Source: Chiloscyllium plagiosum
Lineage: Eukaryota
Reading direction: 5' to 3'
DNA: 64,000 bases
NCBI RefSeq assembly: GCF_004010195.1
Contig: NC_057719.1
Location: forward strand, 15,891,860-15,955,859
Position 1 is the stretch's first letter. Each line of letters opens with the position of its first letter. The translations under genes and the position numbers were made by a program. The notes beneath the pieces were generated by a model that saw only the letters and a list, made by a program, of their open reading frames with translations, did no database searches and was not told where the DNA came from. Below are positions 12,999 to 64,000 of this stretch, in pieces.

Positions 12999-14293
12999 GT
13001 GCAAAGTTAAAAAATCACACAACACAAGGTTATAGTCCAACAGGTTTAATTGGAAGCACTAGTTTTCTGAGCGCTGCTCCTTCATCAGGTGGTTGTGGAG
13101 TATAAGATTGTAAGACACAGAATTTATAGCAAAGGTTTACGGTGTGATGTAACTGAAATTGTATATTGAAAAAGACCTGGATTGTTTGTTAAGTCTCTCA
13201 TCTTTTAGAATGATCATGTTGGTTTCGTGGTTTAGAGATGCTGGTGTTGGACTGGGGTATACAAAGTTAAAAATCACACAACTCCAGGTTATAGTCCAAC
13301 AGGTTTAATTGGAAGCACACTAGCTTTTGGAGCACCGCTCCTTCATCAGGTGGTTTCAGTACTTTCATATGTAAATTTCAAAACTTTTTTAAAAGTTACA
13401 TTCCCAAGTGAACTTTAACAGTTGGTGTCAAGTTGGCCCAGATAATGCTTTGAAGGTGTGAGCTACCCTGTGTGAGGCTGTCGGTGCCAGAATGGTCAGA
13501 CTGATTCTAATCTAAAAAACAGATTTACAGAATCTTCCATGGATTCATGCAGTATTTGAGCAAACACACACACACACAGACACGCTCACACACAAACTCC
13601 TACACACACAAATACTCCCACAGACACACAAACTCATGCAGACACTCTCCTGTACGCTCACACATACACTCCCACACACACACACGCACCCTCTCGCAGG
13701 CTTATACCCCTTTAAACTCACACTCACATACATACACATACTCCCTCACAGACACCCATAACCCCTCCCCACACACGCACCCACATGCACGCAGGTTTGT
13801 GGGGTGAATCTGTACCTGCAGAATTACATTTTACTTTGCTCAAAAACTCCATGAATCCATGTAAGATTCTGTTTTTAGATTAGAATCAGTTTGACTATTG
13901 TGGCACAGTCAGCCTCACACAGGGCACCTCACATTATCTGGGCCAACATGATACCAATTGTTAAAGTTCACTTGAGAACTTTAAGTTTTTTTTAAGTTTT
14001 TTAAAAAATATTTTACGATTTATATATGAAAGAACTGAAACCAACGTGGTCATTCTAATAGACAAGAGACTTAACAAAAAATCCAGGTCTTTTTCAATAT
14101 ATAATTTCTGTTATATCACACTGTAAACTTTTGCTATAAATTCTGTGTCTTACAATCTTATACTCCACAACCACCTGATTAAAGAGCAGCGCTCCGAAAG
14201 CTAGTGCTTCCAATTAAACCTGTTGGACTATAACCGGGTGTTGTGTGATTTTACCTTTGTACATCCCGATCCAACACCAGCATTTCCAAATCA
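12999..14293. mobile_element. Palindromic Penelope-derived insertion with hammerhead motifs in both arms
   Basis: 13004-13564 is the reverse complement of about 13835-14260, with a CA-rich spacer. TSD TAAGTGAGAA at 12989-12998 and 14294-14303. An extra terminal copy lies at about 13227-13352. Confidence 0.8.
13563..13792 (+). repeat. Degenerate (CA)n-rich microsatellite
   Basis: Seen directly in the sequence. Confidence 0.9.
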
Positions 14294-14812
14294 TAAGTGA
14301 GAATGAATTTCTTCTGTATTCTGACCGTAGTGAAATCAAAAGGGCAGTCTTTATAAATTTGTTTACAGTTCCTTCACATAGAGAATTAAAAAATCCTGTA
14401 TTTTATCTATATCTGCAAAATTCCCCAAAATGATTCATCCAAATTATTAGTCATTACTGTAAAGTATATGTGGTAGACAGATTTCTTACAACAAAATTCC
14501 AGGGACAGCAACAAAATAAGGAGAAATTCCATTTTGAGTTGAAGTGAGGAATGAGTTTTGTGGTGTCTGGTCTACCATTGCTTGGTGCAAGATTTTGTTC
14601 TCTAACTCAAACTTGGTAAGTGGGATCTTGGGCATCTTTTTTTGAGATTGCATGGTCAGAGGGTTGGAAATATTGGTCAATGCTGGAGCTTTCCAGAATT
14701 CTCACTGTTGGCACCTTACATAAAATCCAAATACACCCAACTTCAAATATTGCATGCCAAGATCATCCTCACACACTGTTGCTTGAGCTTTGACATTCCA
14801 GAAAGGCCTAGA

Positions 14813-15557: not shown

Positions 15558-15713
15558 CCTCGGGCTAAAGTTACTTTGCGCAAGTTCAATGAAGATTTCA
15601 CTTTGCATAAAACGAAAAGATTTCCAGAATTTTATTTCCCAGATGTACGGTTTATTCCAAATGGAATGTTTATGTACCCAACCACATACACTCTGTATGT
15701 GTTTGGATCACAG
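15558..15713 (+). CDS. CATSPERB: CATSPERB internal exon (156 bp, phase 0 to 0)
   Basis: tttatcctcag|cct...cag|gtgaag. Encodes KRFPEFYFPDVRFIPNGMFMYPTTYTLYVFGSQ, resembling KFPIFRFP....PVGMVFHPRSHFLYAYGNQ. Confidence 0.9.
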
Positions 15714-32932: not shown

Positions 32933-33077
32933 GTGTGGTATTCAAATGATGGGGGCATTTCATTTGAATTGCTACTGAAATTGAAAAATGATTTTGTAGA
33001 AAAGATAATTACATGTCCTCGAAATCACGCTGTGATCTTCATGACTATGTTACAGAATTTCTATTACACCAGACCAG
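32933..33077 (+). CDS. CATSPERB: CATSPERB internal exon (145 bp, phase 0 to 1)
   Basis: ttcctcttttcag|gtg...ccag|gtaaag. Encodes VWYSNDGGISFELL..YYTRP(G), an Asp-box motif resembling IWLSVDGGNTFQLI..YSTKAG. Confidence 0.9.
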
Positions 33078-33338: not shown

Positions 33339-33669
33339 ATGATCTGGAGATGCCGGTGTTGGACTGGGGTGTACAAAGCCAGAGATCACACAACACCAGG
33401 TTACAGTCCAACAGGTTTATTTGGAAGCACTAGCTTTTGGATCGCTGCTCCTTCATCAGGTAATTTTGGAGAATAAGATTGTAAGACACAGAATGCTGTA
33501 ATTTTCTTAAGCTTAGTTTATTCTATTTTCTTGCTTCTGACTTATATTGTAGGACAGAATTTCTTACAATCTTATTCTCCACAATCACCTGATGAAGGAG
33601 TAGCGCTCCAAAAGCTAATGCTTCCAAATAAACTTGTTGGACTTTAACCTGGTGTTGTGTGATTTTTGG
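33339..33669. mobile_element. Short palindromic Penelope-derived insertion
   Basis: Inverted arms at about 33385-33490 and 33561-33665. TSD CTTTCTA(A/G)ATGC at 33327-33338 and 33670-33681. Confidence 0.8.
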
Positions 33670-39400: not shown

Positions 39401-39550
39401 ACATTTTCATTACTGACCAATTTAAAGTTATCCACATTTGGATTCCCAAATAATCACTGCAGTGAGTAGCTAATCTGTCGTGGGGAATAGAGGGTGCAAT
39501 CAGTACGACTTGCAGAACGTGGTGATATTATACACTGTACCTAGGTACAA

Positions 39551-39770
39551 GTGACAATATCAAATAAATGTAAAACTAAATCCAAATCTAAATTCAAATC
39601 TAAAACTAAATCTAAATTACATGTATTGGAGTCAGCCATCGAACATTGTGGGCGGCACGGTGGCACAGTGGGCGGTGACAATATCAAATAAATGTAAAAC
39701 TAAATCCAAATCTAAATTCAAATCTAAAACTAAATCTAAATTACATGTATTGGAGTCAGCCATCGAACAT
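39551..39770 (+). repeat. Perfect 96-bp direct duplication around a 28-bp HE1 head fragment
   Basis: 39551-39646 equals 39675-39770; spacer is TGTGGGCGGCACGGTGGCACAGTGGGCG. Confidence 0.9.
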
Positions 39771-40146: not shown

Positions 40147-40315
40147 GATTTAATTTCTCGGGTCCAATGACCCTTCCTCAGAACACAGGAGCTCTGAGGA
40201 AGGGTCACTGGACCAGGAAAGCTGTCCCCTCACAAATACTGCCAGACCTGCTGAGCTTTTCCAGCAATTTCTGTTTTTGTCTCTAATTTCCAGGATCCCC
40301 AATTATGTTTTTTTT
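40147..40315 (+). mobile_element. Penelope terminal fragment with short 5' inversion, inserted in the 5' LTR
   Basis: Inverted repeat 40161-40182 / 40193-40214 with CTGAGGA-AGGGTC. TSD ATAGAATAT at 40138-40146 and 40316-40324. Confidence 0.72.
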
Positions 40316-40395
40316 ATAGAATATTAGTTCACTGATTGAGGCTGTTAACTTGGTTCAATCAGGGAGCCCTAGCTGACAGATATAAACAGGATCTC

Positions 40396-40653
40396 CCTCA
40401 CTGTTTTGATCACACAGCACTGTCCTTTGAGGTGAAGGGCAGTGTTTGTCACTGGCCACCCGGGTGTTTTCCTATCTTCCTGGTGGTGGAAATTGAATAA
40501 AGATTGGTGCACTTTGTGTCTTTCACTGTGTCTCACACCTGCACACACACACCATGGGTGCTGGGGAAAAAAATAAGCACTACCGCACTTAGGTGGTAGC
40601 GTGGGGGTTAATAAAAAAAAATAAAAAAATAAAAAAAGAAAAAACAAAAAAAA
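40396..40653 (+). mobile_element. Unit U poly(A)-tailed retroposon inserted in the 5' LTR
   Basis: 14-bp TSD ATAAACAGGATCTC at 40382-40395 and 40654-40667, A-rich tail, and 3' stem-loop CACTACC..GGTAG(C)GTG. Confidence 0.85.
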
Positions 40654-41577
40654 ATAAACAGGATCTCAGAGGTTCTGCTCATTCTGAGAGTTGACTCTGA
40701 GTAAGCTGGATCCGTGTCAAAGACTTTCCATGTGTAAATAAAGGGTGACTTGGCAATAGAATACCAGCCTCTGTAGAGCTAATTCAGTGGCGAGAAAAGC
40801 ATGTTTCTGAACAAATTCACTTGCAACAGTTGTCTTTGAGTTGGGGGTAAGCATTTCTGGCATCATGCCTCTATTTGGAAATCTTGACTTATTTGATCTT
40901 GCTTTCATAGATTAGGCCCTGTATGTGGAAAGATTGCATTGATTTTTCTAGGCAGATGATGTTAGAGTAGAGCAAAAGTAACGAGTAATTCTTCTGACAG
41001 CTTGTGGACCCACAGCTTTATTGGTTATTAGGAACCTATCTTTCCCTGCTGTATGACATGCTAAAACCTTTCAAGACTTGACAGATTTAGTTAAGAAATA
41101 TTGCCATCCCAAGCCTCCTCTAAGTCTGAGACATTATCAGTTTTATTTCACAATTCAAGACCCAGGAGAATCCATATTGGGATTTTTGACTAGCTTAAGA
41201 TGAATGGCAGAAGTATATGACTTTGGTTTAACTTTTAATGACATGCTGAAAGATCGTTTGGTATGTGGGATTAATGATGTAGCCATACAACAGCCCCTAC
41301 TAGCTGAAGCCCAACTGGACTTCAAACAAGCACTACAACTGGCTCTATCATTGGAAAATGCAACAAGTTCCATATAAGTTGCAGTATATTCTGAAGAAAG
41401 TGGACAGCCTCATCAGTCTGACTGAGCTTGGGGAACATCACTTGAGTGAAGGTAATTGCATAGCCTCACTCAAGACATATCCTGAAAAGAGGGACTCTAG
41501 GTCAGCTCACAGCAAAACCCCAAAACAAAGCCAAGACTTAGCCAAACATTTAAAAATTCCTTCAGGATCTGGACCGG

Positions 41578-42232
41578 TAATCTGGATATTTTTCAGAGGG
41601 GTCTTAAATGTAGTTCTGATGTGTCTGGTTTGGATGGGTTTTAGTGCCAATTTGATTATAGTTAATAGATTCTGCCTCAGACAAAAGGCTTTCATGTTTT
41701 GAAGAAAAAATACTTGTACAATGACAGGGGAATGGCTACTTCTCCCAGCTCAGCTTTTCTCTGGTTTGGTTTGATGTGGTTTGGTTTGGTTTGGTTTCAT
41801 CAGTCTAGCTGTTCAGAGCTGCTGGTCAGTTTAAGCTGAGGAATCCAAAGAAACTACTACAGTGGAAGGAGGTTCCATGCTGTGTCTGTCTGCCATCTCT
41901 CTCTCTCCTGGAAGACTCTGTGTTTGATTTTACCTTTTTTGCCAAGGGGATGTTTATACGGATGTTGCAAGTATTTGGAACAGCATCATTAAGTTGCGAT
42001 AGAGTTGAGTGGGTTTTTAAATAGTTAAGTTATTTCCATATTCTGTTGTCTTTTGTTTGTGTTTCATTCAGTGATCTTGCAAATAAATTCTGTTTTGTTT
42101 AAAACTAAGTGATTGGTCCAGCTGCATCACTTCTGGATTATCCACCTTAAACCTGCTTAAACCAACTAGAAAAGTTAAAGTCCGGGCTACTTTCTCGAAA
42201 TGCTTTGAGGGGGTCTGGTCTGGTCCATAACA
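41578..42232 (+). mobile_element. Solo LTR of a second family inserted in the Gypsy gag-pol
   Basis: Non-coding interruption with AATAAA near 42082 and a GGTCCATAACA end; 5' boundary approximate. Confidence 0.55.
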
Positions 42233-44202
42233 CAGTTTACAAACTCAAGACATCAAAAGAGTCCCACTAGACCGAAATGGATTAAGAGAATTCATAGGCC
42301 AGTGTCCAGGAGAATGCACACCTCGGAAAGTCCACTGTCATCTGTTTTAGAACAATTAGATTGCTTAGCAACAAACAAATTAGAACCAATCAAAATAAAT
42401 GTCTAGTAAAAAGCTAACCTGGTTCTAAAGGAAGATGAGTTTGATGCTGTCATTTCAATACTCGCAGTCTTTAGCAAAGTTTGTTCTGTACTCCAAATAT
42501 AAGTTTGTGCAAGACCTCAGCTAGACTGAGAAACAATACTGGGAAGCCTTTACAGATTAAAGGTACAACTTCTGGAGTCTTATGATAGTTTAGTTACCAC
42601 TGATTGTAGTAAAAGGCTCAGGTCCTAGCTTGATGGGGCAAAATTGGTTGAGAAAGATTCACCCTAAATTAGATCCATATTTTTCAGTTAGAAAATAGCT
42701 TCCTAAGTGAAGTCATAATTAAGTGTCTGAATGTTTTTCAGAAAGACCTAGGGTCTATCGAAGGAGCCAAGACCACCTTGCACATTGACTAGGAAGCAAT
42801 TTCATGAACCTGCAAGGCCTGCTCACTGCCGTTTGCCTCACGGGCAAATATAGAGGCAGAAATCAGAAGGGTGGAAAGTGAGTCAAACTAGGCCAGTTTT
42901 CAGAATGGACAACATTGGTTGCTCTGATTGTGAAGCCTGATGGGTCACTTCGCCTTTGTGGGGATTTTAAACAAATGGTAAATCGTTTTTCAGAGCTGGA
43001 TAAATACCAAATCCCTTGCAAAGAGGATTATTTTCAAAGCTGGCAGGGAAGCTGTCGTTCGCGAAGCTTGACATGGGCCACACTTACTTGCAATTGCAGT
43101 AAGATGAGGATTCCCAGAAGTATGCTACAATTAATACCCATAATTGCTTCTACCAATATACAAGACTGCCATTTGGGGTATCGACAGTCTGTGCAATTTT
43201 TCAGCGGACAATGAAAAATATTTTACAATGTCCACCCCAGGTCTACATTTACTTAGGTGATATACTAATAATAGGGGAGACCAATAAGGAACACTTAGAG
43301 AACTTAGATGTTTCTCCCAGGTGGGTGTTCTCTTGGAAGGGAAAAATGTGTGTTTGAGTCACCTTAAGTGACCTACTTGGGCTACAGAGTTGACACAACC
43401 AGGTTATACCTGTTGGAAGATAAACTGAGGGCGATCGAAGGTGCCTTCGCCCCACTTTGGAAGCTTAGGTCTTTCTCTAGGCTTGTGAATTATTTTGGAA
43501 AATTCATACATAAATTGGCCTCTTTCCTGGCACTTTAGTGTTGGAAATGGTCGATAGCCAAGCCATAGATTGGTATGATGGGTATAATGGATGTCACTGC
43601 CTCAACGCCTTTGCCACCTGAAGAGGAGAGTGAATTTCTTCTAAGATGCTCCAGGCACAAGAGGGAGTTACGGTGCATTACATACTACCATATCAAAGGC
43701 AGAGTTGAAGATATCTGACCTGGCACTAAAACACCTCAGGTGGAGCTACAAAAAAAGCCTATATTATCAGACTTTGAGGGGATGGGATATATTGATTGTA
43801 ATGAGGTCAGCCAGATAGAATATGAGTTCCTAGAATAGGACTGTTAATCTCGTCAAATCAGGGAGTCTTGGCTGACAGATAAGAACAGGTATGTCAGACA
43901 TTCTGTTCACTCTGAGAGCTGGCTCTGTGGAAGCTGTATCAGTGTCAGGGACTCCCCATGTATAAATAAAAGGTTACTAGGTGACGGATACTGGCCTCTG
44001 TGGAGTTATTTCACCAACCCATGTCAGTTCCATTGAAATCCTACTCAAAGGTTCAATTTTAGATAATTGATTTAGTTTATGTTCAAACTTACTATCTTTT
44101 TACTAGCTGATTTGTTTAAGACAAAGTAAATACTCAGAGAGATCCAAAATATTGAAATTGCTACTTAAGAATTTGGTAATTTACTTTAATTTTACTTTCT
44201 AG

Positions 44203-44354
44203 GAAGACAATGCAGGCTTTTCTAGACCTCTCGCTCTGCAGTTTCTCACCAGCACAAAAGCAATGTTTCTTGAACACATTTCCTGGATTGAACATGAAGT
44301 GGGTGCTAAGCCTATGTTTTCTAATTATCACGTTGGAAAATTGTTAACACTGAG
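44203..44354 (+). CDS. CATSPERB: CATSPERB internal exon (152 bp, phase 0 to 2)
   Basis: ttttactttctag|gaa...ag|gtaatt. Encodes EDNAGFSRPLALQF..MFL..FSNYHVGKLL, resembling DMGFETALAPQH..IIFF..FGNIHYGKVI. Confidence 0.85.
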
Positions 44355-44951: not shown

Positions 44952-45183
44952 TGTAGTGATTATAATGAGGTCAGCCAGCTGGACATCATAGAACATATGT
45001 TTCCTGGTTAGAACTGTTAATGGTTCAATCAGGGAACCTACCTAACATAAAAGGATGAATGTCAGGGATATTGAGGCCTTGAATGCCTGACTCATTGATA
45101 GGCAGTACTAATGTCAAAGAGTATGCATTTGTAAATAAAGGGTGATTGGTGACGGGATGCTGGTGTCTGATGAGGTATTTCAG
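44952..45183 (+). mobile_element. Gypsy solo LTR (same family as 43791-44013)
   Basis: TGTAGTGATTATAATGAGGTCAGCCAG...GTAAATAAAGGGTGA...TATTTCA. Confidence 0.8.
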
Positions 45184-55299: not shown

Positions 55300-56203
55300 T
55301 TAGCGAGTTTTGAGAAGATTTGTAGCTCAGGTTGAGGTTTTGGATGTAGGTTTGCTCGCTGAGCTTTCATTACCTTACTAAGTAACATCTTCAGTGGACC
55401 TCATGCGAAGCAATGCTGAAACTTCCTGCTTTCTATTTATATGTTTGGGTTTCTTTGGGTTGGTGATGTCATTTCCTTTGGTGGTGTCATTTCTTGTGGT
55501 GAAGTCACTTCCTGTTCCTTTTCTCAGGGGTGGTAGATGGAGTCTAACTCGATGCGTTTGTTGATAGAGTTCTGATTGGAATGCCATGCTTCTAGGAATT
55601 CTCATGCATGTCTTTGTTTGGCTTGTCCTAGGATGGATGTATTGTCCCAGTCAAAGTGGTGTCCTTCCTCATCCGTATGGAACTACGCAGAGCAGAGGAA
55701 ATCACCTATACCGGGTGTTCAAAAAGAATGGGTACCCAATGAACACAGTCCGCCGATTTCTCAGCAACAAACCCAAACAAGCAGACAAAACACATCCAGA
55801 AACCGTAGCCACTCTCCCCTACATCAAAGACATCTCGGAAGTGACTGGCAGACTACTCAGACCCCTTGGCATCATGATGGCCCACAAACCCACCAACACA
55901 CTAAAACAGCAGCTATTGAACTTGAAAGACCCTATACAGACAATGAGCAAAACTAACGTCATTTACAAAATACCATGCAAGGACTGTAACAAACAATACA
56001 TTGGACAAACAGGCAGAAAACTAGCCATCAGGATGCATGAACACAACTAGCCACAAAAAGACATGACCCTCTCTCACTAGTATCCTCACCTATGGATAAG
56101 GGAGGACACCACTTCAACTGGGACAATACATCCATCCTAGGACAAGCCAAATAGAGACATGGAAATGAACCTTTCAGCTCAGCGAGCAAACCTACATCCA
56201 AAA
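55300..56203 (+). mobile_element. Penelope-like element (Poseidon type) with inverted 5' segment
   Basis: On +: FKKNGYP..LPYIKDISE..NVIYKIPCKDCNKQYIGQTGRKL..EH. 55300-55680 is the element 3' end on -, with a CTGAAGA..GAAA motif at 55365-55394. Confidence 0.88.
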
Positions 56204-56744
56204 CGTCTTGTGCTGGATCTATGATTTTACCACAACAGGTTTACTCGTTACTCAACCGTGACTTCTAAGGTAGCTGAATCTTTCCTTATTATTGAAAACA
56301 GTGTCTCTTTTCTTACCCTTGCTGCATCCAGCTCTATAGCAGACACCTTCTTTAAAAAGGGACACCTATTGCATTTTCCATTTCTAATTCTAATTATGTT
56401 ATATAATTTACTACATCCTTTAAATTCAATTTATACTTCAAGGACTCAAGTTAAAATTGGACCACTTGTGCATCTTGAATAAATAGAATTGGGAAGGCAT
56501 GTGCAAGAATAAAAGAACCGATGGGAGCATATTCACATACCTTTGAAGATGACATGACAAATTGATAAGGCTGCTAAGAAATTATTTAGAATACTTGCCT
56601 TAAATAAGAATAAGTCAGAAGATGAGAGTGAAGAGACTTTGCAGGAGTGAAACAGAATGAGTAATTGGGAATCTGGGGCAAATGGGAATTCAATTAATAA
56701 TTATTTTGCAATTAATAATTATTTAATTATCAAATACAAATCAG

Positions 56745-57000
56745 AATGGTGCAGTGGCTTAGTGATCAGCACTATTGACTCACAGGATCAGGGACTTGGG
56801 TTCAATTCTAGCCTCGGACTACTGCCTGTGTGGAGTTTGCATGTTCTCCCTCTGTCTGCACTGATTTTCTCCAGATGCTCTGGTTTCCTCCCACAGTCAA
56901 AAGATCTGCAGGTTAGTTGGAGTTGGTTGTGCTATCCAGGGTTGTAGAGACTATGTGGATTAGCCATGGAAAATGCAGTGATAGGGTAGGATGGGGAGCT
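56745..57000 (+). mobile_element. HE1-type SINE, diverged
   Basis: GGGTTCAATTC B box and TGTGTGGAGTTTGCATGTTCTCCC..GGTTTCCTCCCACAGTC. Confidence 0.82.
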
Positions 57001-57360
57001 GAATGTTGTCTATGTTTTTGCTTTGGTTAACCTATTTACATAATTTCCTCTAAAATTCAGTATATTTCAGATTCAGGTTCCTTAATTTGTGTGTTTTTTT
57101 AATCCTTCAGTTTCCCAGATTACTTCGCCCAATAGCAGTAAAATAACACCATACATGGACTCAAACATTTTCAGCTCTCTTCATCCGTATCCATTGAGGA
57201 TACTTCTTCAATATGTTCCCAGCCTTCCCAATTTTATAAATGATTGCATCATTGAATGATAACTTCCTTCAAATGCAGGTAGCCCCTTTTGAGCTACAAT
57301 ATACATGGTTTTAAACAATACAGCTCTAACGTTCATGAGGCTTTATCTTCAGCCTATGCT

Positions 57361-58068
57361 AGGAGAAAGTGAGGACTGCAGATGCTGGAGATCAGAGCTG
57401 AAAAATGTGTTGCTGGAAAAGCGCAGCAGGTCAGGCAGCATCCAAGGAGCAGAAGAATCGACGTTTCGGGCATAAGCCCTTCTTCAGGAATGAGGAAGGT
57501 GTGCCAAGCAGGCTAAGATAAAAGGATGGGAGGAGGGACTTGGGGGAGGGGCATTGGGAATGCGATAGGTGGAAGGAGGTTAAGGTGAGGGTGATAGGCC
57601 GGAGAGGGGGTGGGGGCNNNNNNNNNNNNNNNNNNNNNNNNNNNNNNNNNNNNNNNNNNNNNNNNNNNNNNNNNNNNNNNNNNNNNNNNNNNNNNNNNNN
57701 NNNNNNNNNNNNNNNNNNNNNNNNNNNNNNNNNNNNNNNNNNNNNNNNNNNNNNNNNNNNNNNNNNNNNNNNNNNNNNNNNNNNNNNNNNNNNNNNNNNN
57801 NNNNNNNNNNNNNNNNNNNNNNNNNNNNNNNNNNNNNNNNNNNNNNNNNNNNNNNNNNNNNNNNNNNNNNNNNNNNNNNNNNNNNNCTTGCGGTTGCAGA
57901 GGAAGGTGCCGGGAGTGGAGGTTGGGTTGGTGGGGGGTGTGGACCTGACGAGGGAGTCGCGGAGGGAGTGGTCTTTCCGGAACGCTGATAGGGGAGGGGA
58001 GGGAAATATATCCCTGGTGATGGTGCCTATTTGGAGGTGGCGGAAATGACAAAGGATGATACGATGTA
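57361..58068 (-). mobile_element. Neptune-type Penelope fragment containing an N gap
   Basis: Reverse-strand FRKDHSLRDSLVRSTP..PGTF.C; hammerhead at 57460-57487. TSD TCAGC(C/T)TATGCT at 57349-57360 and 58069-58080. Confidence 0.85.
57460..57487 (-). ncRNA. Minimal hammerhead ribozyme motif
   Basis: CTGAAGA-A-GGGC(TTAT)GCCC-GAAA-CGTC on the reverse strand. Confidence 0.8.
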
Positions 58069-60999
58069 TCAGCTTATGCTTCCTGCCTTTTATTTTTCCG
58101 AGGGTTCCCTTATTACAATCTCTTACACCATCTGAGTTTTAGCTCAGCCTTGTTTCACATATACTTACTGTATGTGATCTGTATGTAACTACACTGACAC
58201 ATTACAATTTCACCTCCTGGTTTAGTCATACAAACACTCCTGTATGTCGTCTGATGGGCTCTTTCACTCAGTTCACTATTACTCCTCCCAGAATACATAT
58301 TCTTTCATTTCTGTAACATTTTGATATAATAAGCAATCTCACTTTCTATTTTGATTGTAATTTTTCTTGTATCCCTTTCATAATGCTACTTTCATTGTTT
58401 TAAAGTCAGTTTCTCTTTAGATTTTATGTCAGTATATTATTGTTTAAACTATATTTTTGTGCTCTTCCAAGGCACACTAATCCTTTTAGCAAGTAGGTGT
58501 ACATGTCTGAGGCCCAGTCTTCAGTGCATGTTTTTGTACCATCTAATGTTTGTTTCCTTCGAGGTAACATTCACTTTTGTACACTTACATCAGTGTCCCA
58601 AGACCATGTCACACATTCTTGACTCTCACATGATCTTATCAAATGATCTATGAGGTTTACCTCTCTCTCTATGTATGGTCACGATGCCTCAGGTAGTGGC
58701 TTGATCACCAATTCAATCTTTCTTAAAAGAAAAGACAAGGACACAAACATCACCACGAGAAAGCTTTCAGTTTGGTGATCTCATCTAAACTTCCTCTTCA
58801 TTAAAATGCTTTTTAACCTCAATTGACATTTCAAATGAATATTCTTTTTTTTTCTTCTGCCACCAGTTTCCAACTTTAATTACTTTGTCTATCAATTTTC
58901 TAATTTAACTATTACCACCATATCTACTTCCAGAGATCTGTAAAGATTTGTAGTGCATGGTACATAATCTTATAATATTTTAAAACAGAAGTCAGACATT
59001 TCTGTTTGATTCAGGCACAACATACTTCGCTTGTTCTTTCTCTGAGATGACTCATCTTTTTTAAAAAGTTACTTGATAACTCATTCTAGATATTTGATAT
59101 ATCCCTATGTAAATTTGCCCAAATTCAATGTTGTGTTTACTCCCTCAAAGTCACTAACCATTTTTATATGGCTTGAAACCACTGAGACTGTGTGCATGCA
59201 CTTTATCATTCCCCTGAATCTCCTTAAATTTTCAGGTGACTATTCCATTTGCAGTAAATGTTTTAGAATACCAGGACATGTGAGTCTTAGTATAGCTTTT
59301 GTCATGACATACTTAAGTTTACCCAATCCCAGTGGTTTTGAGATACCTGACACTCAATACATTTGATGTTTCCACAATACTTCCCCAACACTGAAATATG
59401 TTATTGATGAATGGCTTGATAGGTTGAGGGTGCCTCATCCATCACTGTCTGCAAATGGGTTCAGCCTTCGGTGTCTCCAACTTCTAAAAAAAAACAAACA
59501 AGCTCCATCCATTCCATATCGAGCAGAATGTGTTAATTAGTGTTAAGCTTGTATGGATTCTGAAAGAAAAAGGGGTGATGCATCAAATCCTGCACATAAT
59601 TACATCATCTGTCTCTCCTCCTGTGAGGAAAATAAGTGAATATACTTTTAAGGAAAGGAAAACCCTCCCAATTTGTTAAATTTGCCTTTCCCGAACTCCT
59701 TACCCAGAGGGAGTTGCATTTTCAACACTTCAATGTCTTTATCATTTGGATTTTAACAATGAGTCAATCTTAACATCCAGAATTAAAGATTCACTCATGT
59801 TAAAACAGTATTTGGAAATTCCAAACATTGTAATTTCTGGAATTAAAATTTTCCATCTCCAAACACTACACCGAGCCAACCCCAAAGGTTTTTTTTTTAC
59901 CAAGCTTTACAAACTAAATTTTTAAATCAACGTTTTGCGTATATTTGCTTTACCATTGGTTTCTTAAAAGAATATTACATTAACTACCCATGTCCCACAC
60001 TGATACAGCCACACTACAAACTTTAAAAAAATCCATACATTCCCAAAACATAAACTAACTTAAAAGTATCCCCAGATCTCGAACAAAACTCACAAATTGT
60101 ACAAGATGATTTTGAAAGTATTCTGAATGACATTTTAAGGCCTTTCCAACATTGTTCACTAAAAAATATATGGGCTTGAGCAGCTTGATTTTTGTACATT
60201 GATTTGCACTGTTTCTCAGAATGGAGACCTTTCCTAAATGAGCTGTACCAGTGCCAGATTGAATCGCTTCTAATCTACATTTGCAACAGATCAGTCGCTG
60301 GTTGTCTTATTTGAAAATATTCCCTTATATCCTGTAGCTCTTTTGATATTTGTTTCGTTTTTCAGTTTTGTAATTCCACTGTGTTCTAATCGATGCCAAA
60401 AGTGCAGAGTTTTCAATCTCTGATGCAATACATCATTTTTAAGGTTACCATTTATCACTGTATCAGAAATCTTTCTCAGCCATCCTTTGTTTTGCCCTGA
60501 TTGGATAGATTCCATTAGAGAACTGTATAAGCACTCATCTTTCTGTACAAACATCTGAACAATAGGTTTAAATTTCCTGACAGACCCGAACATGTTGGTA
60601 TCGAGTCTGTGAGAAAAGGTGAAGGTTCTGACTGCGTCACAAATGCTGTTTCAGTAACTGATGAGGTAATTGGGTGATCTCATTGAGCACTGGAAATCAC
60701 GACATCTTTCATAAAGGGTAAATACATTTTACTTTGTGGAGTCTGCCTATTTGCAGTGGGACTTTTTTTGTCAATAGAAAAGGCATCCTTTGTGAGTAAT
60801 CGGGAAGGCTGTGATTGGGATTTAACTTTTTTGAATGAGTTGTTTTGATTCGATACGACTTTAATCAATGCATTTTGACTTGGAACAGTTTCAGTTTCCT
60901 TATATACTACCATTTTTTCAGCATTTCCCGTGTTGGAGTGGAGTACGAACCATGTCTTCTATCGGTTTTCTTTTCCTCCCTCCACATCGGATTTGACCT

Positions 61000-62445
61000 C
61001 TCTTACTCCCTTACGCTTTGGAAAGCAATGCGTCTTTCACATATTGTACATGGCACCAGTAGGTATTCTGTCTATCCTATTCTTTTCTATTCCTGCTTTT
61101 AATAATGCTGTGTTGTTATCTTTTGTTTCACCTTCGAACCACCCCATCTCTAACTTGTTCCTGTTTGTTGCTTGCTTGGGTGGGCCTCACTCTTCGCTTA
61201 CTAGCCTCGACATTCTCTAACTGTCCTAACAGCAAACATACCTGCCCCCACTAACTGTCCGTGGGCTGGCCCTAATGGGACTAACAAGGCACCTCGCATT
61301 CAGCCCGGACCACTCCGCATTAGCCGGTTCCTCATTCTGGTTGTGAAGGCTTCCTGGTCTGTACTTTGAAACTGTGGAGAACACATACCCACTTGCGTAG
61401 CCAAATCCCTCAAATGTTTTATACCTTCTGGTATGTTCTCCCACTTTTCAACATCACTTCCCAATCTGTCGGGGGAGGGTACTTGTTTCCTACTGCTAGT
61501 GTCAGTGCAATTCACAACAATCCAGTATGCCCTACGTTTCTGAAAGCGCTATTCGCGTGTGGATCAATACTTAATGCTCCCAGATTCCCTTGCTGTAGGG
61601 CACTCAGCAAAACATGGGCGGCACCCTGGTCACATGACCAAGTCAACCTAGAGTCTAAGGTTTCACCAGACTTCTGCTTAAAACGCGACCCCAAATCCTG
61701 CAATTCTCTCGATATTCTCGAATTCTGTAGGTTTTGTCTTCCTACCTGTTTTGCCTTATTTGTTATTATGGGTCATACTATTAGTCCCTTCTCTGAGGAT
61801 GACTTCAGAGGTGGAGCATCCTGCCCTTCTGTCCATTCTGATACTCTGAATCAGATGGATATCAAATGTCTCCATCCAACTGTTTGGGGTCCTATCATGA
61901 GGTTAATAACTTTTGCACTTTGACTAGGTCAATTGTCCAATTGCGCTGTTTTGCTTTCTTTTTTCTGTTGTACCATCACCAGACAGCAAACTATCTGGTT
62001 CTGCTTCTCCTCTGCCTGCTTAGCTCTTTCCTGCATTGTCTTAACTGTTTCTTTTAACTTTTTAAGTGATTTTTAACTTTGTACACCCCAGTCGAACACT
62101 GGCATCCCCAAATCTTAACTGTTTCTGTTAGGGTTGTGTTACACAGTTCTACCACCAGCAATGTGGCCTCAAGCATCCTGTTATTGGCCTGGCACTCTCC
62201 CAATTCGCTACACATAGAAACACAAAGCTGTTAACAATGTTCATCTCATTTGCGATATACTGTCCTTGCTTCTGGGGAACCCCGCTTCCTGCAAGCACTT
62301 GTGTATGGCAGCCTGCATGAATAACCCTTCTTACTTTCTTTTCCCGGTTATAACCATCCCCCATTCTTGTGAGAATCCTAATTGTGCTAACAAGTTAGCT
62401 ACAGACTCGAATCCAGAGTCTGCCACATTTCATTCTTGAATACGG
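61000..62445 (-). pseudogene. Decayed ERV-L/Fv1-like (class III endogenous retrovirus) gag
   Basis: Ordered motifs: VANLLAQLG..W; TLLTAL; coiled coil; KVQKLL..DPKQLDGDI*; LQDLGSRFKQKSGE..DQGA..LGALSID; AVGNKYP; KWENIPEGIKHLRDLA; DQEAFTTRMRNRLMRSGP; LLKAGIEKNRIDRIPT. Stops and frameshifts are present. Confidence 0.82.
62053..62113 (+). mobile_element. 61-bp Penelope terminal fragment inserted in the gag
   Basis: Matches 14245-14292. 13-bp TSD CTTAACTGTTTCT at 62040-62052 and 62114-62126. Confidence 0.8.
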
Positions 62446-62731
62446 AAGGTCTCCAGAGCATCAGGTTGTCTTTCCCTGCTCTTAAATATTTTCCCGAATT
62501 CCATCCTAATCGCCAAAAATGTCTTGGATCACAGAGTGTATCCAAATGGTTCTTTTTGGATACAGATAAATATAGTTAAAAGAAGACTCAACTGCGGCAA
62601 TTTACTTAAATATGGGTGTTCATTAAGTAATAATAATGAGTAATAAATGGAAAAGAAAGGAGAAAAAGCAACAAATCTCGTCCTTCTGCCTGTTGGGGAC
62701 CCCTTGTTTGACGGCTGGTCTGGAGGCTTAG

Positions 62732-62749
62732 GGGTCATTCCCGGCACCA
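62732..62749 (-). promoter_or_regulatory. Putative retroviral primer-binding site
   Basis: Reverse strand reads ...GGATCGCA-AA-TGGTGCCGGGAATGACCC (LTR-like CA end, 2-nt spacer, TGG), about 300 nt upstream of gag. tRNA identity is ambiguous (Leu-like with transitions, or His/Phe by the first 8 nt). Confidence 0.55.
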
Positions 62750-64000
62750 TTTGCGATCCTGGTCGAAGGTGATCCAACTCTCAGAACGAAACTCTCTCCC
62801 TCTTCAGTTTAACAAACAGATAGTACAGAAACAACTAAAGAAGTCAAAACTGCTGGCTATTACAGAAAACATAGCTACTAAAGCCCATAAAGGAATGTTC
62901 ACAGGACTCATTCAAGGTCATGTAGCTTGTCGAGTATTATCAACAATTTTAGCCCTTCACCCCATCCTCAACAATCTATTTGCCATGCAGCTGTCGAATA
63001 TCATTATCAAATGTAGTCCTTCAGCCCATCCAGTGCATATGGATAGCAATATCATCCAGACAGCTGTTGAGATCCTGGTGGATGTTGGTCATGGTGCATT
63101 AGAAGATTTTGGGTGCTGAGGTAGTTTCAGAAGGAAGATGGTTAAATAGTATTAAGAAGAATAAAGAAAACAATATGCCTGAAGGGAGTAATGAATGTGA
63201 TAAAGAATTTGGATTCCAATTCACAGCTGGTGATATCCAGAAGCCAAATGGTTTGCAAGCAATTAACAATGTTGTTCTCAACTAAATGAACTAGACAAAA
63301 CAAATTATAAAACTTTTTGGACTATCATGAATACTATTCTAGGATCCTGACTGGAAAAAATCCAGTGCAGATTTTTTTTAATAAAAGATAATTTTAAGAG
63401 TGCAAAGTCAAGATTCTACTCTATACTGATCAGAGCCCTGCAATTACTAGAGTTTAAAACAATGTGATTGTGAATGCAATGTTGAAAGTTTAAAGAACAA
63501 TGAACAGAAGTCACGTCTTAAAATCAAGTAAATGTTTTGGGTTTCATATAATTGAAAAATAACACTTAATAATGAGGCTTATTTTGCAAATGATAATGTT
63601 TCATTGCTGTTAGTTATGCATCATGTAATATGCTAATTATTAAAATGCTGATGATGTTAAGAACCTGCTGTATTGCAAACAAATATTTACCATTGTGATG
63701 GGGTGGAAGGGAATGAGTGTGACAACCTTTGATGTGGAAACTATGCAATAAGAAAAATTTGTAATCTCCAATTAAACTTAATTTCTCAGCTCCTTAATTA
63801 ACATGGTATACTAGTTTAGAGATAGCTAAATAATTACCAACAAATCATTTATCAGCTTTCCCATGCTGTCACACTTATTTTCATTTTTTTCAAATTTACT
63901 CACACATGACTGTTCACTGCTGCTTTTGACTGTATTCTCTCAATGTTATTCTGTAGTACCATGTGCTTTATAATATGCTGGAAGCAAAGCCTTCTTAAAA

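Follow-up and report, generated by a model that had tools for sequence, protein, structure and literature searches.

A decayed class III retroviral gag with a cordon-bleu-like segment in the place of pol, antisense to CATSPERB in a shark genome

Layout of the locus

We analyzed a stretch of 64,000 nucleotides from the genome of Chiloscyllium plagiosum (assembly GCF_004010195.1, contig NC_057719.1, positions 15,891,860 to 15,955,859; hereafter the window, with coordinates counted from its first letter), in which an earlier reading, made from the sequence alone, had proposed a gag of the ERV-L/Fv1 type (ERV, endogenous retrovirus) without pol. The element that lies there (Table 1) runs, in its own sense, from an end resembling a long terminal repeat (LTR) through a primer-binding-site-like sequence, a leader and a broken class III gag to a decayed segment resembling the C-terminal part of cordon-bleu (COBL), a protein that nucleates actin, and on into a multi-copy 3' region. 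We consider it moderately likely that this is a dead, replication-defective class III ERV in which a captured fragment of host COBL messenger RNA (mRNA) stands in place of pol.

The host gene is CATSPERB, recognized by domain matches in three of 12 candidate plus-strand stretches tested, in gene order, and the minus-strand element is antisense to it, as the sequence-only reading had it. The last of these exons matches CATSPERB_head only at positions 1-41 of 179, which makes a later intron the probable site of the element; tests of three stretches close to it brought up no further CATSPERB exon. A shark host is consistent with the nearest gag relative, a whale-shark gene model.

At its 5' end, the LTR-like part is set off by contig depth, 18-31 times that of the flank in the bin 62850-63085 in three related species and at flank level again above 63086. 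The CA-AA-TGG geometry previously described for the primer site is indeed in the sequence (62753-62747); the window holds no transfer RNA gene for comparison with it. The polypurine-tract-like sequence that had been placed near 58204-58220 was not borne out: no run of at least 10 purines followed by TG[T/C] occurs in the element, the sequence downstream is unlike the 5' LTR-like part, and repeats continue to at least 57115. Because this repeated sequence runs past a later insertion (57361-58064), which we take to be Penelope-like, the element is longer than first reported; it spans about 63090-57000, and no true 3' end was found. Measured against a complete provirus, which would have two LTRs, a polypurine tract and a 5-bp target-site duplication, it shows one LTR-like end and no purine run at the proposed site; this weakens the description as a complete provirus, not the retroviral origin.

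A direct repeat of 36 nucleotides at 72% identity (63055-63090 and 62739-62774) joins both edges of the LTR-like part; it is perhaps fortuitous, perhaps the remnant of a tandem LTR. A tandem-LTR junction at 63055-63090 was rejected, 72% over 36 nucleotides being at chance level among 18 families, as was a processed provirus copied by a long interspersed element (LINE) with R at both ends, for which there is no shared end sequence. An open frame of 135 codons runs antisense through the LTR-like part (62712-63119, plus strand; p ~0.014 for the part tested), with only a chance-level Pfam match.

Table 1. Features of the element and its host gene (window coordinates)
Feature	Coordinates	Strand	Basis
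CATSPERB exons (host gene)	15558-15713, 32933-33077, 44203-44354	+	Pfam CATSPERB_2nd 229-266 and 267-313, CATSPERB_head 1-41
Multi-copy sequence continuing past the insertion	56990-57360	-	Depth 49-134 at 57115-57171 vs flank means of 7-17
Later insertion of a very abundant repeat	57361-58064		Depth 10^5-10^6; loose ends at 57360-57362; other copies in the window; assembly gap (N run) at 57618-57886
Multi-copy 3' region, possibly decayed env or a long 3' region; not pol	58065-59888	-	Depth 6-30 times flank
Candidate 3' untranslated part of COBL with an A10 run (59898-59889) at its end; presumptive extent	59889-60216	-	A-run, RNA reads
Decayed COBL-like C-terminus, three WH2 repeats	60217-60560	-	Pieces 60560-60435, 60429-60379 and 60282-60217; chain 4jhd_C
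Stop-poor stretch in which gag and COBL join; possible gag tail, COBL linker or both	60561-60985	-	Stop-poor test, reading frame
Disrupted class III gag with a coiled coil, two capsid domains and a helical domain at the C-terminus	60986-62504	-	phmmer, tblastn, profile search with shuffles, stop positions
Short piece of a very abundant repeat inside gag	62057-62112		18-nucleotide direct repeats 62039-62056/62113-62130; copies at 13231-13277, 14245-14299 and 33341-33389
Leader	62505-62731	-	Between primer site and first candidate ATG; bins at 8-18 times flank depth
Primer-binding-site-like sequence, two bases past the LTR-like end	62732-62749	-	Read from the sequence
LTR-like 5' end, ending in CA before the primer site; 5' boundary approximate	62752-63090	-	Depth, 65-nucleotide tandem repeat at 62919-63031

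Identity and decay of gag

The gag frame of 61455-62504, with stops read as X, was searched with phmmer among 1.84 billion proteins (E <= 0.001) and retrieved three (E 3.6e-45, 8.4e-7 and 7.4e-4): P0001, P0002 and a mudskipper protein. P0001 is the whale-shark gene model XP_020392837.2, the first ~250 residues of which are the element's gag at 55% identity; P0002 is an intact, unnamed Gag of 521 residues that matches the window colinearly over 62057-61010. A search with P0002 yielded seven more relatives among 8000 candidates scored, namely a lizard protein named Fv1-like, to which P0002 is 66% identical, four newt proteins, one unnamed protein and a monitor-lizard Gag-Pol model with a reverse transcriptase (RT) domain (P0010). 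When the six frames of the window were scanned with a profile of seven natural gag homologues, matches appeared at 61778-61452 (40.7 bits), 61485-61123 (53.8) and 61111-61007 (7.9) and nowhere else, while 20 shuffled windows gave a best domain of -1.7 bits, with no domain in 13 of the 20. The profile search and tblastn with the relatives, which places the homology at 62215-60986, together confirm the colinear minus-strand gag motifs reported earlier; the first 290 nucleotides of 62504-60986 are assigned to gag presumptively. Homology to the ERV-L type, for which the sequence-only reading had cited motifs, was tested here through these relatives.

Structural evidence points the same way. For a predicted model of the capsid part of P0002 (predicted local distance difference test score 87), foamy virus capsid takes the first two places among 48,161 chains, aligned over both domains (Z 5.7, root-mean-square deviation 5.0, 143 residues aligned; Z 5.2), and the next chain stands at Z 3.8; these Z values are modest (<8), and the model was built on the homologue rather than on the window copy. 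In the Atlas, the nearest structure cluster of P0002 is Fv1 (template-modelling score 0.50 over 205 residues), and its best named feature match is foamy Gag (0.84), a lead only. The relatives, the Fv1 cluster and the foamy-like capsid fold support the proposed assignment of gag to class III, as ERV-L/Fv1-related; this call was made through homologous proteins and stops at the class, since a choice among the ERV-L, ERV-S, SnRV-like and ERV4 subgroups would take an RT. A dUTPase in pol is a mark of ERV-L proper. A Gypsy or host origin, the alternative considered at the outset, was rejected on the phmmer relatives, the profile search and the capsid fold.

In keeping with a class III Gag, which has no Cys-His zinc knuckle, no zf-CCHC match was found in the window frames, P0002 or P0003, though decay could mask one in the window copy. 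When the disrupted gag frame was compared with proteins by shared words, none of 851 candidates matched; an Atlas search with an 82-residue gag piece had no usable match, and viral contigs and metagenome contigs yielded no relatives. A PDB sequence search with the Gag profile returned two chance-level matches. A Foldseek comparison of the model of the entire Gag gave no match at E <= 0.001, with retroviral Gags weakly at the top of the viral library.

The window gag shifts frame at least five times, contains six in-frame stops and is interrupted by the short repeat piece listed in Table 1 (depth >100,000, loose ends at 62114). Its divergence between species is not below that of the flank, and no sign of selection is seen; it is a dead gag, the open frame of which has not been kept, and not a domesticated Fv1-like gene.

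Three side observations concern gag. Because the Gags P0002-P0009, which are intact or nearly so and come from newt, lizards and mudskipper, have no Pfam family and are mostly unnamed, this class III family is easy to overlook. P0001 is named SDCCAG8 and consists of seven residues also readable in the element's LTR-like part (~63000), ~245 gag residues (62215-61420), a LINE-like piece and then SDCCAG8 (Pfam CCCAP 297-638); it represents a related copy in sense at another gene, either as an annotation artefact or as an LTR-driven chimeric transcript. An antisense open frame of 199 codons overlaps gag at 61324-61923.

A cordon-bleu-like segment and no pol

The ~2.8 kb behind gag had been described as without recognisable content, which does not hold for 60560-60217, where there is a match to cordon-bleu. 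The likeness was predicted by eye before any search for it. Mouse cordon-bleu (4jhd_C) was the first of six matches among 177,635 sequences for the frame 60294-60650 (E 0.068, chain 9-50), and the same chain returned as third of three for the frame 60058-60450 (E 1.4, chain 54-70 and 149-170). The three pieces follow each other in chain order, in sense with gag, and the first two WH2 repeats are 131 nucleotides apart, compared with 135 in the mouse chain, a spacing that would leave no room for an intron between them. In mammals, introns separate the WH2 repeats of COBL. Mouse Cobl has 14 exons (PMC7584501). The segment is assigned to COBL rather than to COBLL1 because it has three WH2 repeats, a feature that sets the two apart (PMC3849942). 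Judging from these alignments, 60560-60217 very probably derives from COBL.

Behind gag, the minus strand is stop-poor over 60100-60980, like gag itself (p 0.005-0.03 against 1000 resampled sequences, with no correction for the 16 tests of regions and strands), and one frame continues from the last gag match with stops only at 61039, 60961 and 60682. A PDB search with 60523-60958 gave no match; the solved COBL chain does not cover the corresponding part of COBL.

About 320 nucleotides past the COBL match lies the A10 run, the only A-run of at least 10 on either strand of the window. In poly(A) single-cell RNA, 169 reads from 64 starting points, in the same sense as the element, extend over 60049 and pile up at ~60030-60080; they diverge beyond 60080 into related but different sequence, and come either from the 3' end of the parent gene or from a sibling copy. 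Over gag there are next to no reads in one raw RNA run, of which ~2/100 was read; this is no evidence of silence.

The absence of pol at this locus is supported by several searches. As the sequence-only reading had stated for RT, RNase H and integrase, no Pfam family was found in six frames of 58000-60803, while the positive control, RVT_1 of a decayed Gypsy element near 43000, was recovered (E 1.6e-9). The RT part of P0010 had no tblastn match in the window at E <= 0.1, and a PDB search with three minus frames of 58065-59902 gave nothing relevant, only one unrelated match at E 0.56. The Gag lineage has nevertheless had pol, because in P0010 a related Gag is joined to RT.

The 3' region (58065-59888) has no match in Pfam, PDB or a protein search, and a word-based protein search with one of its frames, in one length class, matched none of 1720. 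It contains three strong minus-strand splice acceptors (59620, 59559 and 59483), and four of the 15 best in the window fall in 59559-63178. There is a slightly stop-poor frame (p 0.078) with one hydrophobic stretch; with only one such stretch and no family match, an env reading was not adopted.

Copies, depth and age

Contig depth relative to flank was determined in the three related species; it is not copy number and misses copies below 80% identity, and it stands at 18-31 for the LTR-like end, 8-18 for the leader and gag start, 3-5 for the gag body, 0.7-1.8 for the COBL coding part, 3-4 for 60018-60253 and 21-30 for 58366-59073. The profile is U-shaped, as for a family with nested deletions. 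Because the COBL part is at flank depth and gag at 3-5 times flank, most gag-bearing copies lack 60254-60961, having something else there or nothing. Read with caution, this rough depth suggests that the family numbers tens of copies, most of which have lost their middle part, as the deleted XtERV-S copies have (PMC8278194).

The junction between gag and the COBL-like segment is not an assembly error, because single contigs span it in all three species (X1, 60528-61427, with one difference; X10, 60802-61313; X18, 60520-62091); one contig of species C also spans from COBL to 59815. Compared with the window, species B and C diverge in their best contigs by 3-6% over the element and by 3-4% over the flank, and other copies by 13-15%. 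The insertion is thus older than the split of the three species, its layout is common to all of them, and it shows no sign of selection. Position 60049 occurs in 11-16 contigs per run that differ from one another, and 60527 in 2-4 such contigs; the extra contigs at the WH2 region may be the host gene's own exons.

Neighbouring repeats

Elsewhere in the window, a decayed Gypsy-type element with RT occupies 40750-43800 (plus strand; RVT_1 E 1.6e-9), and repeats at ~40160-40750, 43790-43950 and 44960-45180 resemble LTR-type pieces of it. A repeat with inverted arms, presumably Penelope-like, lies at 55334-56207 (55607-55677/56091-56161 at 90%, 55334-55365/56176-56207 at 97%), and a local duplication of ~110 nucleotides at 39550-39770 is interrupted by the start of a sequence resembling a short interspersed element. 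An Rfam scan of 56000-64000 gave one chance-level match only.

Origin of the gag-COBL arrangement

If a COBL mRNA fragment was captured by a class III ERV, as we are inclined to think, RT copying a class III retroviral RNA would have jumped, close to where gag ends, onto a spliced COBL mRNA packaged alongside that RNA, and back again in the element's 3' part, with 0.4-1.1 kb of COBL replacing pol. The product would have kept the cis signals, been integrated antisense in CATSPERB by the enzymes of a helper copy before the divergence of the three species, after which it would have decayed with no sign of selection. The mechanism is described for LTR-mediated retrocopies (PMC5131818) and for gene captures by ERVs (PMC4299795), and the account also follows the captures in frog ERVs (bioRxiv 10.1101/2021.11.23.469661).

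A number of observations weigh against this account. The COBL matches are weak singly (E 0.068 and 1.4), and an opposite-strand control gave 10 unrelated matches at E 1.3-2, 4jhd_C not being among them. None of five short pieces matched the Pfam WH2 model, and the distance from the second to the third WH2 repeat is 147 nucleotides, compared with 285 in mouse. The comparison was made against the mouse chain. The A10 run is equally consistent with a LINE-made retrocopy. The window contains no second LTR copy, in line with the earlier remark that a matching LTR pair could not be confirmed, and the 3' region is tied to the gag family by adjacency and similar depth only. To these are added the limits of relative depth given above and the fact that the lists of joints, swamped by two abundant repeats, hold 15 of 919.

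The strongest competitor, which we nonetheless regard as unlikely, is that the family was already pol-less, with a MaLR-like layout of LTR, gag and 3' region, and that a 5'-truncated, LINE-made COBL retrocopy landed later at the end of gag in this one copy. This would suit the flank-level depth of the COBL part (0.7-1.8) beside a gag at 3-5, the A10 run ~320 nucleotides after the match, and the lack of any trace of pol on either side of the segment. However, no target-site duplication stands out above chance, the longest repeat, of 11 nucleotides, being equalled or exceeded in 78 of 100 shuffles, and decay may have erased one; position 60049, upstream of the A10 run, occurs in 11-16 differing contigs, which is unexpected for a single-copy retrocopy that ends at the A-run; and Gag relatives have pol (P0010).

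An improbable possibility is that Gag and COBL formed one selected frame, so that a founder was amplified and the capsid lattice clustered WH2 repeats for actin assembly at sites of budding or cell-to-cell transfer. Over 60958-60520 just one frame is stop-poor, and it is that of the last gag match (61111-61007), yet a shared frame has a one-in-three chance, the stops at 61039 and 60961 separate that match from the stop-poor stretch, the WH2 pieces lie in other frames, and the stop-poor stretch has no match to COBL. Nor does the sequence around the stop at 60961 agree with the hexamer for readthrough in SnRV (PMC13517186). All three WH2 repeats and the preceding stretch are retained, and tandem-WH2 nucleators are described as requiring oligomerisation (PMC9569871), which a capsid lattice might supply. 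The 2-4 differing contigs at 60527 and 11-16 at 60049 would agree with amplification, but the extra contigs may be host COBL exons, and no purifying selection is seen between species. We give equally little credence to the wider proposal that an ancient shark class III lineage swapped its pol for the actin-nucleating end of COBL, in one frame with Gag, and became dispersed as the carrier of a Gag-triple-WH2 protein.

More doubtful still is a chance neighbourhood, within one intron, of a 3'-truncated provirus (LTR, leader and gag), a COBL processed pseudogene and an unrelated repeat. The absence of an LTR pair and polypurine tract would be accounted for, and among the joints listed (15 of 919) none links gag to the 3' region; against this, all parts lie on one strand and have the same A-over-T bias (0.15-0.22, compared with -0.04 in the flank), they abut without spacer, and both ends have similar depth in three species. 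That the COBL likeness is a chance match in a viral accessory open reading frame, as the low scores and missing Pfam WH2 match might suggest, is highly improbable, since the same chain was retrieved from two frames, with pieces in order and the first spacing within 4 nucleotides, was predicted before the search and was absent from the opposite strand.

Comparison with known systems

Gene capture by ERVs and class III ERVs of sharks are both known, and COBL as a cargo was not found reported: the literature searched, which omits most subscription papers, yielded no report of COBL capture or a Gag-WH2 fusion. It likewise yielded no report of a pol-less class III family in sharks; it did not cover repeat databases, where the family may be catalogued. 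What is present is a single dead locus without demonstrable present function. An element of this kind would escape surveys that start from pol or require env; the survey of elephant shark started from pol and also required env (PMC4422223). As a cargo, the working end of an actin nucleator directly behind a capsid gene is unusual. Were it to prove in frame and selected in copies, it would directly link a retroviral capsid protein to actin nucleation, and a Gag-triple-WH2 protein would be a retroviral counterpart of the bacterial tandem-WH2 actin nucleators; no report of such a counterpart was found in the same literature.

The sequence-only reading had envisaged an ERV-L-related lineage in cartilaginous fish; such a lineage exists, and it had already been published. 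Class III-type ERVs of cartilaginous fish include the SnRV-related CmiERV lineage I of elephant shark (PMC4422223) and clade Huo (PMC6001957; see also PMC4977317), class III ERVs are known in zebrafish (PMC8672886), and pol-less deletion derivatives outside mammals are represented by the XtERV-S copies Xt-S4 to Xt-S22 (PMC8278194). With XtERV-S, CmiERV lineage I and clade Huo the shark element shares an ERV-L-related Gag without Cys-His box, a primer site beside the LTR end, and deleted copies that keep the leader, gag start and 3' end, whereas it lacks pol, a recognisable env and a 3' LTR, and has host cargo behind gag.

The MaLR elements (ORR1, MT), non-autonomous members of class III (PMC1331978), likewise have class III gag-like sequence without pol, but in many thousands of copies as opposed to tens, by rough depth, for the shark family, in which a piece of host gene occupies the gap. 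Of the gag-only, MaLR-like family suggested earlier, the absence of pol stands for this locus; a family-wide pol-less layout is no more than a possibility, and the COBL-like segment, at flank depth, fills the place of pol. Should sibling copies be pol-less throughout, the MaLR-like family would stand. Fv1, a domesticated ERV-L gag, has a homologous capsid region, as seen through P0002; the shark gag frame, in contrast, is broken and without sign of selection.

Defective gag-onc retroviruses are non-autonomous and have part of their internal open reading frames replaced by a partial mRNA. The closest analogies for the capture that we favour are ERVs with host genes: CrocERV29 with KIT-ligand and CrocERV31 with nectin3 (PMC4299795), and frog ERVs with OGFr (bioRxiv 10.1101/2021.11.23.469661). 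In these, too, an ERV contains coding sequence of the host, in sense and common to related species; their cargos lie between pol and env, replace env or sit in pol, occur in several to many copies and, in crocodilians, are under purifying selection, whereas the shark cargo is a decayed C-terminal fragment in the place of pol, with a coding part at flank-level depth. In LTR-mediated retrocopies (PMC5131818) and gag-onc viruses, as apparently here, a partial mRNA replaces internal open reading frames and leaves the element non-autonomous; the shark cargo differs in being an actin nucleator rather than a signalling oncogene, and one LTR-like end was found. The locus would thus add a cartilaginous-fish case of class III retroviral gene capture with a gag-onc layout.

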